64,000 nucleotides of DNA from Escherichia coli. GTDB lineage: Bacteria > Pseudomonadota > Gammaproteobacteria > Enterobacterales > Enterobacteriaceae. Under the pieces are notes generated by a model. The model saw nothing but the letters and a program-made list of their open reading frames with translations. It searched no databases and was not told where the DNA came from. Shown here piece after piece: positions 24,546 to 33,703 of the stretch. Position 1 is the first letter of the stretch. Each line of letters starts with the position of its first letter. The position numbers and the translations under genes are program-made. The stretch lies in NCBI RefSeq assembly GCF_003334405.1, contig NZ_QOWM01000007.1; one strand, written 5' to 3'.

Positions 24546-25335
24546 ATTAGAAGAGCCACTTGCCACACTCTGGCGTGGTAAAGATGCCTTTGCAGAAGTT
24601 AAAAAACTGAATGGCGAGGTCTTCCGTGAACTGGAGACGCGTCGCACATTACGCTTTGAACTGGCCGGCAAAAGTTATTTCCTCAAATGGCACAAAGGGA
24701 CGACCCTAAAGGAGATTATAAAAAATCTGCTCTCATTGCGGATGCCCGTTTTAGGTGCAGACAGAGAGTGGCACGCTATTCATCGACTGCATGATGTCGG
24801 TGTTGATACGATGCACGGAATAGGATTTGGTGAAAAAGGGTTAAATCCATTAACTCGCACATCATTTATTATTACCGAAGATCTCACTCCCACAATTAGC
24901 CTTGAAGATTATTGTGCAGATTGGGCGGTCAACCCGCCTGATGTACATATTAAGCGTATGCTGATCGCGCGTGTGGCAACCATGGTGCGCAAAATGCATG
25001 CAGCAGGGATTAATCACCGTGATTGTTATATCTGCCACTTTTTACTCCATTTGCCATTTACTGGCCGGGAAGATGAATTAAAAATTTCGGTTATCGATCT
25101 GCACCGGGCACAGATACGTGCAAAAGTACCACGTCGTTGGCGGGATAAAGATTTGATTGGTTTATATTTCTCATCAATGAATATTGGTCTGACGCAGAGA
25201 GATATCTGGCGATTTATGAAGGTTTATTTTGGGATGCCTTTACGCGATATTTATAGACTTGAGATTGATTTACTTAAAAAGGCAAGGATTAAAGCAGGAA
25301 AAATAGAAGCAAGAACAATAAGAAAAAACTTGTAA
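24538..25335 (+). CDS. waaP: LPS core heptose(I) kinase, 265 aa
   Basis: Translation [16 protein letters not shown]... recognised as WaaP, with several substitutions relative to my recollection of the K-12 protein. Confidence 0.93.
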
Positions 25336-25367
25336 ATAGTATTTTATTACAAAAAGGGATTCTAAAA

Positions 25368-26348
25368 TTGTTGAAATATAGAAACTTCGTTGCTAAGAAG
25401 AAAAATTTATACCAAAACGAAGTGTCGTATGTTAAAAATTTACATATTGCACTATGCTTTGACCGTGAATTCATAATGCCAGCGGGTGTTGCATTATATT
25501 CAATTATATCCAACAATAGACATATTAACCTTCATTTTCACCTTCTTATATCAGGCATAGAAGAAAAGGAGTGTTCAGCTTTTTACGAACTAGAAGGTCC
25601 TAATACATCAATATCTGTATATTATATAACTGATAAATTTGACATTAATCCGGATACATTAGTTCTTGGTATTCCTTTATCAACATGTTTACGTTTTTTA
25701 ATCCCAGAAGTTATTGATGATAAAATAAATAAGATACTTTATCTTGACTGTGATGTCATATGTAATGGTCCTTTAGATGAACTGGTTGATTATAATTTAA
25801 ATGCTGATATTGCATGTGTAATTCCAGATTCGCCAGAAATGCAAGAACGTGTAAAAAAATTAGACTATGGCATTGAGTTTATTAATTATTTTAATGCCGG
25901 GGTTATGTTTATTAATACCAGCGAATGGAAAAAAAATAATATAACACAAAAAGCGTTAGAAATGATCAACAGTGGAAAAGTATATAGGTATGCAGATCAG
26001 GATGTGCTCAATATTTTACTTAATGGACGAGTGCATTACCTTGATAAGAAGTACAATAATAAGACAACATTGTCAGTACGATGTGATGAAGAACAAAAAA
26101 ACTTGCCCAACACAATTATAATGCATTATGTTACCCAGAATAAACCATGGTACAAAATATTTAGAGCACAAAATTTTGATCATTATTTTTCAAATTCTCC
26201 TTGGAAGAACCATAAAAGAAATCTAGCTCCATCATCAAGTGAGATTAGGTTAAAGTCTAAAGTTTTTTGGCTAGAAGGAAAATATTGTAAAGCCATTTCT
26301 TATTATTATAAGTATTTACTTGTTAAATTATTTGGCTTAAAGATTTAG
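25368..26348 (+). CDS. GT8-family LPS core glycosyltransferase paralogue in the waaS position (between waaP and waaB), 326 aa from a TTG start
   Basis: GT8-like motifs YLDCDVIC (DxD), NAGVMFIN, DQDVLN, HYVTQNKPW shared with WaaO/WaaJ in this window; AAGGGA 8 nt before the TTG; I cannot confirm identity with K-12 WaaS from memory. Confidence 0.7.
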   Translation: MLKYRNFVAKKKNLYQNEVSYVKNLHIALCFDREFIMPAGVALYSIISNNRHINLHFHLLISGIEEKECSAFYELEGPNTSISVYYITDKFDINPDTLVLGIPLSTCLRFLIPEVIDDKINKILYLDCDVICNGPLDELVDYNLNADIACVIPDSPEMQERVKKLDYGIEFINYFNAGVMFINTSEWKKNNITQKALEMINSGKVYRYADQDVLNILLNGRVHYLDKKYNNKTTLSVRCDEEQKNLPNTIIMHYVTQNKPWYKIFRAQNFDHYFSNSPWKNHKRNLAPSSSEIRLKSKVFWLEGKYCKAISYYYKYLLVKLFGLKI

Positions 26349-26361
26349 CTGGAATGAAATT

Positions 26362-31289: not shown

Positions 31290-32432
31290 ATGATTAAAAC
31301 AATAATATTTACCGTCACACCAATATTTTCTATACCGCCAAAAGGAGCTGCAGCGGTTGAAACATGGATTTATCAGGTCGCAAAAAGACTTTCGATTCCA
31401 GTAACTATCGCCTGTATTCGAAACGAAGGTTACCCAACCTACACAAAAGTAAATGATCACTGTGATATTCACTACATTGGTTTTAGTCGAGTCTATAAAC
31501 GACTTTTCCAAAAGTGGACTCGACTTGATCCTGTGCCATATTCTCAGCGTATTTTAAATACCCAACCTAAAAACACTGATCCGAAAGACTCTGTTATTGT
31601 TATCCACAATAGCATGAAGCTGTATAAACAGATTCGTAGCAGAAGCCCTCACGCGCAGCTAGTTATGCATCTTCATAATGCTTTCGAGCCAGGTGAGTTA
31701 GACAAAAATGCAAAGATAATTGTTCCTAGCCAGTTTCTTTTCGATTTCTATTCGGAAAAAATGCCTGATGCAAATATTGCTATTGTGCCTAATGGTTTTT
31801 GTTCTGAATCGTATGAACAAAATAATACTGAAGATTTGAGGCAGAAACTGAACATTGATGCAAATGATACCGTGTTATTATTTGCAGGAAGGATATCACC
31901 AGATAAAGGTTGCCTGATGCTTATGGAGGCTTTTAATCAGCTGAATAAGATACAAGATAACCTCAAACTGGTGATTGTCGGAGATCCTTTTGCCAGTAAA
32001 AAAGGCGAAAAAGCTGAATATCAGAAAAAAGTTCTGGATGCAGCGAAAGCTATTGGAGCGCAATGCATTATGGCGGGTGGACAGCCTCCAGAGCAGATGC
32101 ATAACTATTACCGTTTAGCAGATTTAGTTGTTGTTCCTTCTCAGGTAGAAGAAGCTTTTTGTATGGTAGCTGTTGAAGCGATGGCGGCAGGTAAACCAGT
32201 GCTTGCCAGTCAAAAAGGTGGAATTAGTGAGTTTGTTCTGGAAGGAATTACAGGCTATCACCTTGCAGAGCCTATGACATCTGAAAGTATTCTCGCGGAT
32301 ATTAAGCGCGTTTTGGCGGATGCTGACAGAGCTCAAATTGCTAAAAATGCCCGAAATTTTGTTTTCTCAAAATATAGCTGGGAACATGTTACTCAGCGTT
32401 TTGAAGCACAAATACAAGACTGGTTTGGTTAA
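31290..32432 (+). CDS. waaK: LPS core alpha-1,2-N-acetylglucosaminyltransferase (GT4), about 380 aa
   Basis: GT4 EX7E region QVEEAFCMVAVEAMAAGKPV; N-terminus MIKTIIFTVTPIFSIPPKGAAAVETW matches Salmonella/R2 WaaK; occupies the slot where K-12 has GT9 waaU; ORF-track start 31248 trimmed to internal Met. Confidence 0.8.
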   Translation: MIKTIIFTVTPIFSIPPKGAAAVETWIYQVAKRLSIPVTIACIRNEGYPTYTKVNDHCDIHYIGFSRVYKRLFQKWTRLDPVPYSQRILNTQPKNTDPKDSVIVIHNSMKLYKQIRSRSPHAQLVMHLHNAFEPGELDKNAKIIVPSQFLFDFYSEKMPDANIAIVPNGFCSESYEQNNTEDLRQKLNIDANDTVLLFAGRISPDKGCLMLMEAFNQLNKIQDNLKLVIVGDPFASKKGEKAEYQKKVLDAAKAIGAQCIMAGGQPPEQMHNYYRLADLVVVPSQVEEAFCMVAVEAMAAGKPVLASQKGGISEFVLEGITGYHLAEPMTSESILADIKRVLADADRAQIAKNARNFVFSKYSWEHVTQRFEAQIQDWFG

Positions 32433-32451
32433 AAATTATTGGATTTGAAGA

Positions 32452-32487
32452 GCCTGCCTGAACTTAATGTCAGGCAGGCTTTTTTTT
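32452..32487. terminator. bidirectional intrinsic terminator between convergent waaK and waaL (9-bp stem GCCTGCCTG/CAGGCAGGC, 10-nt loop, 8 T)
   Basis: Perfect inverted repeat followed by TTTTTTTT on the plus strand and preceded by an A-rich tract; overlaps the waaL stop codon. Confidence 0.65.
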
Positions 32488-33703
32488 ATTTATTCCGCAT
32501 TGCTAACAGTAAACCAACAATCAAGCCAATTGGTTTGAGATCAACTTCCTCGAAGTTACCTCGAATAATATAAAAGCTTACAAGCGTTAAAAATAGTAGT
32601 AATTGACCATTATAAGGAGTGACGACAACTGTTTTAAACGTTGCATTAGCTGTCTCTTTGATAATAGAGCCATACAGATAAAGTAAAGCGAGTAGTCCAG
32701 CCAAACCCGCTGCAAACCAAATTGACAAAACAACGTTGTGTGGCCCAATGGATTGCCTGAACTTCCATGACGGAAAATCTACAACACGCTTATTATATAT
32801 TGCATGGTAAATATCATCGCCGTAGCCATATCCCTTAAGAGGATTTTCCATAATTAATGTCCACGCCGTACCTTGAGTACCATTGGTATAGCGATAAGAA
32901 CTGTCGGTCTGTTGAAGTTTATAAATAAGCCTGTCTTTACCAGCATGATCACCTTTATAGGTAAATACACCCACTGCGGCAACAGAAATAACGATGGAAG
33001 TCAGCATCAATAATTTCCACTGACGATTTAAGATTAACCATAGCAGAGTCACTATGAATACTGCCAGCCATGCACCACGAGACAGCGTTCCTAATAGCAG
33101 AAATAAGAAAACTGCACTAAAAATTACGAATGCTATTTTATAAGAGGTTTTCTTGATAAGCCAAAGGTTTAATAATGCTGGAAACAGAAACACCATTGAA
33201 TCGGAAATACTACGGTGTTCATAGGTGGAAAATGGCATTATTCCTTTATTATAATCCTGAATATAAAGAATAAGTTCAACAAGACAACGTAAGCCAAGTC
33301 CGGTAACTAATGAGTATAGTACAATTTTACCAATGCTTTCATTATCTTCATCTTTTAATAATGCAGGTATAAGTAAACTATAGGCCAAAAATCCTTTAAG
33401 TACCGTATTACTGAATTCTTTAAAACTGATTTTCAGATCAGGTGATATAAAAGTAGCATATAAAAGAATGAGTGATAGTGCCAGGACACTATAAAAAAGA
33501 TTATTTTTATAGAGTACTTTAAATGTTCCCGGAGCACGAGAAACTTGATAGATTACCGTAATAATCATTAGTATAGATATGATGTGTTTATAACGGGTTA
33601 TACCATCAAGGAAAAAGGTTGCAATAAAGAGGAATACCAACGCTTTATTCCAGTACGGTTTCCACTTTTCTTTATTACGTAGCGCCAGCGAGGCTGTTAA
33701 CAT
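32486..33703 (-). CDS. waaL: O-antigen ligase, 405 aa
   Basis: Polytopic membrane protein in the conserved slot convergent with the waaQ operon; length near Salmonella/R2 WaaL (K-12 WaaL is 419 aa); very AT-rich. Confidence 0.88.
   Translation of the reverse strand: MLTASLALRNKEKWKPYWNKALVFLFIATFFLDGITRYKHIISILMIITVIYQVSRAPGTFKVLYKNNLFYSVLALSLILLYATFISPDLKISFKEFSNTVLKGFLAYSLLIPALLKDEDNESIGKIVLYSLVTGLGLRCLVELILYIQDYNKGIMPFSTYEHRSISDSMVFLFPALLNLWLIKKTSYKIAFVIFSAVFLFLLLGTLSRGAWLAVFIVTLLWLILNRQWKLLMLTSIVISVAAVGVFTYKGDHAGKDRLIYKLQQTDSSYRYTNGTQGTAWTLIMENPLKGYGYGDDIYHAIYNKRVVDFPSWKFRQSIGPHNVVLSIWFAAGLAGLLALLYLYGSIIKETANATFKTVVVTPYNGQLLLFLTLVSFYIIRGNFEEVDLKPIGLIVGLLLAMRNK

Follow-up and report, generated by a model that had tools for sequence, protein, structure and literature searches.

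Compositional borders and probable recombination borders do not coincide at the AT-rich centre of an Escherichia coli R2 waa locus

Introduction

Why are the central genes of the Escherichia coli waa locus so rich in A and T, and do the edges of this compositional island mark the places at which DNA was exchanged? The question is raised by a 64-kb window of the E. coli chromosome (the whole stretch of DNA analysed here, from xanP to the rhsA region), in which an initial annotation recognised an AT-rich block at 25300-33703, read it as a horizontally replaced outer-core cassette within a conserved frame, and placed the likely recombination junctions at its two ends. Since the lipopolysaccharide (LPS) core type sets phage and colicin receptors, O-antigen ligation specificity, serum resistance and core-based vaccine targets, knowing how such cassettes move is useful.

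The GC drop at waa and exchange by recombination are already known. Leclercq et al. (2021, Microb Genom 7:000652, PMC8715443) described a core-genome GC of about 51% at waaDFC and waaA that falls slightly at waaQGP and markedly in the central variable genes, and inferred horizontal gene transfer integrated by homologous recombination, with no phage, insertion sequence (IS) or transposon remnants. What we add is precision: composition edges and recombination edges differ here, waaQGP fall into two families, a junction recurs at the waaP 3' end, and an R2-like cassette in Escherichia albertii suggests that both the polymorphism and the low GC are ancient. We give a probability of roughly 85% to the reading that the island, comprising the waaQ operon and waaL of the R2 core-type locus, is one of several long-lived AT-rich alternative cassettes exchanged by homologous recombination. 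Composition, gene content, divergence profiles, mosaic loci and the ops motif are direct observations; recombination as the mechanism, how old the cassette is, and the reliance of this allele on RfaH and H-NS are what we infer.

Results

Gene content and assignment to core type R2

The waa region of the window is 100% identical to that of strain 65COLEC (NZ_CP070914), and the gene map was transferred from the annotation of that record:

20670-21947, minus strand: waaA, 53.4% GC
21948..22353, plus strand: waaA-waaQ divergent spacer, 37.4% GC, holding the allele-family split and the waaQ leader
22354-25335, plus strand: waaQ-waaG-waaP block, intermediate GC tier, 42-45% GC per gene, K-12/R2-family alleles
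22354-23424, plus strand: waaQ, inner-core heptosyltransferase III
23421-24545, plus strand: waaG, glucosyltransferase I
24538-25335, plus strand: waaP, HepI kinase
25368-26348, plus strand: wabA, GT8 glycosyltransferase (name from the R2 literature), at the position of K-12 waaS, 29.7% GC
26362-27441, plus strand: waaB, 40.0% GC
27441-28460, plus strand: waaO, 33.5% GC
28624-29640, plus strand: waaJ/R, 34.9% GC
29658-30356, plus strand: waaY, 32.8% GC
30428-31237, plus strand: waaZ, 35.3% GC
31290-32432, plus strand: waaK, LPS N-acetylglucosaminyltransferase, R2-defining gene, 39.5% GC
32486-33703, minus strand: waaL, O-antigen ligase, R2 allele, 35.8% GC
33742-34698, minus strand: waaC, 50.7% GC
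34702-35748, minus strand: waaF, 53.8% GC
35828-36808, minus strand: hldD, 50.4% GC

The genes run waaQ-G-P, wabA (GT8), waaB-O-J(R)-Y-Z-K, and then convergent waaL-waaC-waaF-hldD. This order, together with 11.9 kb of 100% identity to RefSeq genomes annotated waaQGP-GT8-waaB-waaO-rfaJ-rfaY-waaZ-GlcNAc transferase-rfaL, indicates the R2 core-type arrangement, and we assign the locus to the E. coli R2 core-type waa cluster on its gene content and sequence identity. In the annotation of the identical RefSeq records waaK adjoins an R2-type waaL; for this pair no K-12 or R1 homologue was found, and the R3 counterparts are only 57% and 51% identical in amino acids. Between waaP and waaB lies wabA, replacing K-12 waaS, with no DNA homology between the wabA region and the waaS region; its GT8 family follows from Pfam PF01501/PF08437 on members of its cluster. 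The block waaB-waaO-waaR(J)-waaY-waaZ is K-12-like and colinear, with 85-90% nucleotide and 88-92% amino-acid identity to MG1655. Both waaK and wabA have been named as R2 genes or markers (PMC13293308).

Among 5426 complete E. coli genomes the R2 locus (at least 80% of it covered) was found in 501, or about 9%, and wabA in 503; the locus copies are at least 99% identical in 480-485 genomes. The R2 core-type waa locus was reportedly the subject of Heinrichs et al. in 1998 (J Biol Chem 273:8849; reference 59 of PMC13293308), with F632 as its prototype strain, and R2 has been described in print as a hybrid of K-12 and Salmonella. Nothing of substance distinguishes our haplotype from the R2 arrangement; it further holds two small insertions of dispersed repeats (28,476-28,595 and 35,752-35,881). 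The K-12 core-type locus has the same architecture and the same three-tier GC profile, and its waaQGP and waaB-O-J-Y-Z genes are 85-92% identical in nucleotides, but it carries waaS for wabA, waaU for waaK and an unrelated waaL allele; no DNA homology to K-12 exists at 25,246-26,360 or at about 31,193-33,792. The number of synonymous substitutions per synonymous site (dS, here a simple Nei-Gojobori/Jukes-Cantor estimate) between the window and K-12 is 0.44-0.96 for waaB, waaO, waaJ(R), waaY and waaZ (26362..31237).

Base composition of the locus

The central genes are indeed AT-rich relative to their flanks. The block at 25300-33703 has a GC content of 35.3% and the window outside 21948-33741 one of 51.3%, which rules out a flat profile; no other 8404-bp stretch of the window is lower, and the block lies about 8 standard deviations (SD) below the others (mean 51.8%, SD 2.0 and minimum 44.8% outside the waa centre). 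Likelihood segmentation of GC across the window, from which all tier edges are taken, places the change-points around the waa centre at 21,930, 25,145 and 33,800 and gives five main blocks:

1-21930: 52.5% GC
21931-25145: 44.0% GC, waaA-waaQ spacer and waaQGP
25146-33800: 35.2% GC, the lowest, outer-core genes and waaL
33801-59345: 52.4% GC
59346-63705: 38.2% GC

The waa profile therefore has three tiers, not two: the flanks, waaQGP with the spacer before it, and the outer core with waaL. The edges initially placed at 25.3 and 33.7 kb lie within about 150 and 100 bp of those of the lowest tier, but the intermediate 44% tier had been missed. The same annotation had described waaA, waaC, waaF and hldD as typical in composition, and the values listed above agree. 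It had also pointed to A/T-rich codons and long A/T runs, and to codon adaptation as a check, all of which are borne out. GC at third codon positions (GC3) lies between 0.24 and 0.34 for the eight outer-core genes and waaL, at 0.38-0.40 for waaQGP and at 0.43-0.66 for the remaining 46 genes, wabA being the most AT-rich gene of all (GC3 0.235). The codon-adaptation index, referenced to the window's own other genes, is 0.51-0.62 in island genes against 0.71 +/- 0.05 in the others. A/T homopolymers of at least 6 are four times denser inside the island than outside (3.9 vs 0.9 per kb), and uninterrupted runs of at least 10 A/T letters fourteen times denser (6.4 vs 0.46 per kb). As for the two spacers named as AT-rich, that between waaP and wabA has only 18.8% GC, but the waaK-waaL spacer holds a G+C-rich hairpin and T8 instead of an A/T run. 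In both GC and codon usage the block deviates significantly from its host (35.2% vs 52.5% GC) and in this sense is an island.

The same three tiers are found in K-12 MG1655, ST131 (the comparison strain carries a K-12-type outer core), LF82 (R1) and 2013C-4187 (R3), with 33.0-35.2% GC in the centre, 44.3-47.6% in waaQGP and 52% in the flanks. Low GC is thus a property of the locus and not of the strain, and because all core types tested share the profile, it is by itself no proof of a replacement event in this strain.

The left border and two families of waaQGP

Where, then, does this haplotype depart from other E. coli? In sliding comparisons with the four other loci divergence is 0-5% up to 21.9 kb, past which it rises to 16-42% against the R1, R3 and ST131 alleles and to 5-20% against K-12. 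The five aligned sequences agree to about 21,994, and two allele families split sharply at 22,036/22,037, inside the waaA-waaQ spacer, some 90 bp upstream of the waaA start codon and 3.3 kb before 25.3 kb. Beyond about 22,037 the window differs from R1/R3-type alleles by 20-38% of nucleotides: waaQ, waaG and waaP are 69%, 78% and 74% identical to them (family range 69-79%), with dS saturated. Against K-12 the dS of waaQGP is 0.42-0.56, and that of the left-flank genes 0.01-0.13. The waaQGP genes exist as two deeply diverged allele families, whereas Leclercq et al. (PMC8715443) described waaA-waaQGP as "highly similar" among types. Given the split at about 22,037, the 25.3-kb edge is not where this haplotype leaves most E. 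coli.

A real internal junction does lie close to that edge, in the waaP 3' end at about 25.11 kb, but in other lineages (ST131 and LHM10-1). In ST131, sites that distinguish K-12 from R1 turn from R1-like to K-12-like between 25,110 and 25,114 (switch at 25,111-25,113), and the GC change-point at 25,145 adjoins this recurrent crossover site.

The right border and the extent of the diverged tract

On the right, the core types become homologous again at 33,800, within waaC and 19 codons from its 3' end, so that the WaaC C-terminus is core-type specific. The two parts of this side are:

33742..34100, minus strand: waaC 3' part, its final 19 codons (33,742-33,799) differing by core type
34101..39151: GC-normal waaC-waaF-hldD-kbl-tdh, 2.7-6.5% from the closest backgrounds (K-12, LB19b)

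Between 33,800 and about 34,100 each 100 bp holds 6-11 substitutions private to R2, the four other loci being identical at these positions, and further patches of such substitutions occur in waaF. We considered E. albertii or Escherichia whittamii alleles as their source and rejected them, as only about one third of the substitutions match and no clear donor emerges.

Compared with K-12 MG1655, the window diverges by 0-1.8% at 1-21 kb, by 8.5-14.6% at 22-31 kb where the two can be aligned, by 2.7-6.5% at 34-39 kb, by about 1-2.7% at 39-47 kb and by 0.0-0.2% at 47-64 kb, the last value making K-12 a close relative and the comparison informative. The waaC-tdh genes have dS of 0.14-0.30, and the last dense single-nucleotide differences from K-12 lie at 39,082 and 39,151, in the tdh 3' end, as they do against the R1 strain LB19b; at waaH the window is 0.1-0.2% from both. 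The tract unlike the nearest background is about 17 kb long, from about 22.0 to about 39.15 kb, and its right third is GC-normal.

Compositional and exchange borders therefore do not match. Only the outer left GC border (21.93 kb) roughly coincides with a divergence border (about 22.0 kb); those at 25.15 and 33.80 kb do not, and as the diverged tract runs from about 22.0 to 39.15 kb, they bound the core-type-specific genes and not the joins of this haplotype. The junctions proposed at 25.3 and 33.7 kb are accordingly not its own: on the left, deep divergence begins at about 22,037, and on the right, homology between types returns at 33,800 while the diverged tract reaches about 39,150; what survives of that proposal is the switch near 25.11 kb in other lineages.

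Two smaller features concern the flanks. To the left of the locus, 3-7 kb and 11-15 kb differ from K-12 by 1-1.8%, the strain being a close K-12 relative and a mosaic of recombined tracts. To the right, the end of tdh and the tdh-waaH spacer (39000-39750) dip to 40-42% GC, just past the collapse of divergence at about 39,151.

Mosaic loci

The window is nearly identical to K-12 over 47-64 kb and yet has another core type. Other genomes combine parts of different loci. In ST131, R1-like waaQGP are joined to a K-12 outer core. LHM10-1 (NZ_CP037903; locus at 8999-20183) has a three-part hybrid waa locus that is R1-like to about 25.1 kb, R2-like (2-7% diverged) through wabA and two thirds of waaB, and K-12-like from about 27.0 kb; its wabA is 94% identical to ours, and the K-12-like part is waaO-J-Y-Z-waaU-waaL. 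E. whittamii Sa2BVA5 carries a K-12-like operon from waaQ to waaZ (2-5% from MG1655) followed by R2-like waaK-waaL (dS of 0.20-0.26 to the window), which makes it a K-12/R2 hybrid in another species and another module swap. These mosaics, the K-12-like background of the window and the published work support the proposed replacement of the outer core in a conserved frame, which the low GC, offered earlier as evidence, does not by itself demonstrate in this strain. In 17 genomes wabA falls at 90-95% identity, and these may be arranged as in LHM10-1.

Relatives outside E. coli and the age of the cassette

How old is the cassette? In a scan for WaaL with one genome per species, close relatives came only from Escherichia (96% protein identity in E. 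whittamii, 91% in the E. albertii type strain and 95% in E. coli E69, against 51% for the R3 ligase). Beyond that genus the scan returned only a 40%-identical Xenorhabdus protein, and it retrieved no Salmonella locus. WabA has relatives with 63-66% amino-acid identity in Salmonella and Citrobacter, and the next, with 43-44%, in Gilliamella, whereas Leclercq et al. (PMC8715443) found no homologue outside Escherichia/Shigella.

The R2-like cassettes of E. albertii and E. coli E69 are colinear with ours at 82-93% nucleotide identity, that of E. albertii from waaQ to waaL with wabA and waaK included. A typing paper could assign no core type to E. albertii; the type strain nevertheless shows this colinear R2-like locus. 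Measured from the window to E. albertii, dS ranges over 0.69-1.07 in the eight central genes and over 0.61-0.70 in waaQGP, against 0.75 for waaC, 0.45 for waaF, 0.40 for hldD, 0.69 for kbl and 0.77 for tdh in the flank, values that come from AT-rich genes and are near saturation in places. The cassette is thus present and colinear in E. albertii with a dS about equal to that of its flanks (0.40-0.77), which makes it about as old as the species split and suggests, from sequence divergence, an old cassette rather than a recent import. Its GC has hardly moved over that time, orthologous sites in E. albertii having 35.7% against 35% in the window cassette.

Substitutions were polarised by parsimony from the window, K-12 or E69, and E. 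albertii as outgroup. In the central genes changes from A/T to G/C outnumber the reverse (251 vs 178), giving an equilibrium GC of 0.40-0.45 against a present 0.36, although parsimony bias in a skewed sequence acts in the same direction; the same count gives 0.43-0.45 for the flank genes. On these age data the cassette may either be of ancient foreign origin and have ameliorated negligibly, or stand at an AT-rich equilibrium.

The waaQ leader and the end of the operon

In E. coli, anti-termination through ops and RfaH takes RNA polymerase through H-NS-coated AT-rich DNA. The waaQ operon has the following elements at its two ends:

22295..22306, plus strand: ops element GGCGGTAGCGTG, at which RfaH loads; non-template strand, 47 nt upstream of the waaQ start codon
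32451..32488, plus strand: hairpin GCCTGCCTGA...TCAGGCAGGC followed by T8, in the waaK-waaL spacer, G+C-rich, abutting the waaL stop codon

The 12-nt GGCGGTAGnnTG stands in the transcribed leader, on the non-template strand, and is the sole full 12-mer match in 64 kb. Shuffles predict 1.2 copies of its core 8-mer GGCGGTAG in the window; there are 7, and the one at 22295 alone belongs to a full 12-nt ops. The remaining copies are at 3038, 11398, 29115, 36070 (minus strand), 50641 (minus strand) and 54892, that at 29115 being inside waaJ on the coding strand.

The RfaH-dependent polysaccharide operons coated by H-NS (rfa, rfb/wzx, kps, hly; Hustmyer et al. 2022, PMC9765446) offer a close parallel. 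In CFT073 the rfa operon is among the loci at which RfaH, once loaded at ops, takes RNA polymerase through filaments of H-NS/StpA; H-NS occupancy and the RfaH dependence of distal gene expression have been shown there, and the distance from ops to the start is 40-67 nt for wzx, kps and rfa (PMC9765446). Our locus resembles these systems in its single leader ops, 47 nt from the start, and in the long AT-rich operon downstream. It differs in that occupancy was measured in CFT073, whereas the R2 allele would depend on RfaH and H-NS by analogy. The waaK-waaL hairpin (spacer 37.7% GC, -25.8 kcal/mol) looks like an intrinsic terminator that would end the waaQ operon.

Discussion

We propose the following model for the waa centre. 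Alternative outer-core cassettes, with 33-35% GC and waaQGP at 44-47%, would all fill the slot between waaA and waaC, and lineages would swap the whole cassette or parts of it by homologous recombination, without mobile-element machinery. Crossovers would fall in the conserved frame and in internal homologous stretches, such as the waaP 3' end and the inside of waaB, and the AT-rich operon would be expressed through its ops/RfaH anti-termination leader. Like classical genomic and pathogenicity islands, the locus has deviant GC and codon usage, a patchy distribution among strains and conserved flanks. Unlike them, it lacks an integrase, a tRNA target, direct repeats and mobility genes: neither the open reading frame list nor the annotation has a transposase, integrase, tRNA, direct repeat or IS at the borders. 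It is a site of allelic replacement and not of insertion.

Several observations weigh against exchange of long-lived cassettes as we read it. All five R2 genomes sampled (4.7-5.4 Mb, with hosts as varied as crow, chicken and human) match the window at 99.95% or more over 25 kb. RM10410 does so over about 62 kb, its mismatches numbering 0 across 13.5 kb to the left and 6 across 19.8 kb to the right. No breakpoint between one R2 locus and another could be mapped among these five genomes, in which the R2 block may simply be clonal. In addition, diversity at hldD, kbl and tdh is unusually high (2-6.5%) in the whole set of strains compared, and the end at 39.15 kb may reflect separate recombination events or linked diversity rather than one co-import with the cassette. 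The dS values that date the cassette approach saturation in places, as noted, and the RfaH and H-NS occupancy data come from CFT073, a uropathogenic E. coli according to PMC9765446, and not from an R2 strain.

What keeps the cassette AT-rich? It is conceivable that type-specific genes, having few homologous partners, escape GC-biased gene conversion and drift under AT-biased mutation, so that low GC is an equilibrium of the resident locus; alternatively or in addition, AT-richness may be kept by selection for H-NS coating and RfaH control. The three GC tiers would then mirror three levels of recombination opportunity, and they do match the divergence classes: a freely recombining frame at 52%, two-family waaQGP at 44-47% and type-specific genes at 33-35%. 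That GC did not rise over a dS of about 0.75 from E. albertii also fits, as does the report that RfaH-regulated operons have especially strong evolved H-NS-binding features (PMC9765446). The excess of AT-to-GC substitutions speaks against it, the estimated equilibrium lying above the present GC, although slow amelioration and parsimony bias both predict that excess, and the account is compatible with an ancient foreign origin as well. Taking its parts jointly, we regard it as rather unlikely.

A related speculation concerns the history of the alleles. The R2 cassette could be a trans-species polymorphism that predates the split of E. coli and E. albertii and was held at about 35% GC throughout, a suggestion that we make tentatively and with somewhat less than even confidence. 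Were it true, the AT-richness of the waa centre would be an equilibrium, through escape from GC-biased conversion, H-NS/RfaH selection or both, and not the un-ameliorated trace of a donor, and the elevated diversity of waaC-tdh, normal in GC, would come from polymorphism linked to a balanced locus and hitch-hiking with it.

A recent import, in which a block from a low-GC donor replaced the outer-core genes at exactly about 25.3-33.7 kb and still has the composition of that donor, would explain the strong contrast in GC and codon usage, the restriction of the cassette to about 9% of genomes and the near identity of the R2 copies. The nearest WabA relatives beyond the Enterobacteriaceae, moreover, are those of Gilliamella, a low-GC genus. 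We nonetheless find it very improbable, since GC is equally low in the same slot for all other core types, colinear cassettes exist in E69 and in E. albertii, in the latter with a dS equal to that of flanking kbl and tdh, GC is unchanged across the divergence from E. albertii, the divergence does not begin and end at the GC edges, and outside Escherichia no donor closer than 66% amino-acid identity was found. Low GC should accordingly be taken neither for a recent import nor for a junction at this place.

That low GC is a by-product of the amino-acid composition of membrane-associated glycosyltransferases and a ligase can be dismissed as having almost no chance of being right: first and second codon positions are also lower in the island (GC2 0.25-0.36 vs 0.35-0.43 in flank genes), but the idea is refuted by the drop being largest at third positions (0.24-0.34 vs 0.43-0.66) and in spacers (18.8-37% GC), and WaaC, WaaF and WaaA, also LPS glycosyltransferases, have normal GC.

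Other features of the window

The two dispersed-repeat insertions of this haplotype both lie away from the GC borders:

28476..28595: 120 bp inserted between waaO and waaJ, within the operon; one copy of a small intergenic repeat that is dispersed in the genome
35752-35881: 130-bp insertion with the waaF start on one side and the hldD 3' end on the other; one copy of an intergenic repeat (about 125 bp) that is likewise dispersed

The first is absent from the K-12, E. albertii, E. whittamii and E69 loci; the repeat occurs at a median of 3 places per genome, with full-length copies of at least 99% identity in 479 genomes, and its ends weakly resemble the element at 35.8 kb in reverse orientation. 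The second is absent from the K-12, ST131, R1, R3 and E. albertii loci and belongs to a repeat with a median of 9 places per E. coli genome, which resembles the consensus of the ERIC/IRU element. It replaces the hldD stop, giving an HldD of 326 instead of 310 amino acids, and the exact insertion is found at 99% identity or more in 480 genomes, matching the count of R2 loci at that threshold.

Between hldD and kbl (36809-37021) the window lacks yibB (htrL), as do ST131, LF82, LB19b and LHM10-1, whereas K-12 MG1655 and the R3 strain 2013C-4187 have it. Contigs of metagenome-assembled genomes labelled "Bacillota bacterium" and "uncultured Flavihumibacter sp." are 99.8-100% identical to E. coli R2 waaZ-waaK-waaL(-waaC) and are almost certainly mis-binned E. 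coli contigs. Finally, the second low-GC block of the window, at 59346-63705, is the variable toxin/immunity end of the rhsA element; in it lie yibG (sel1 repeat), an RHS fragment, an Imm57 immunity gene with a frameshift, and the 3' tip of a gene for an RHS core protein.

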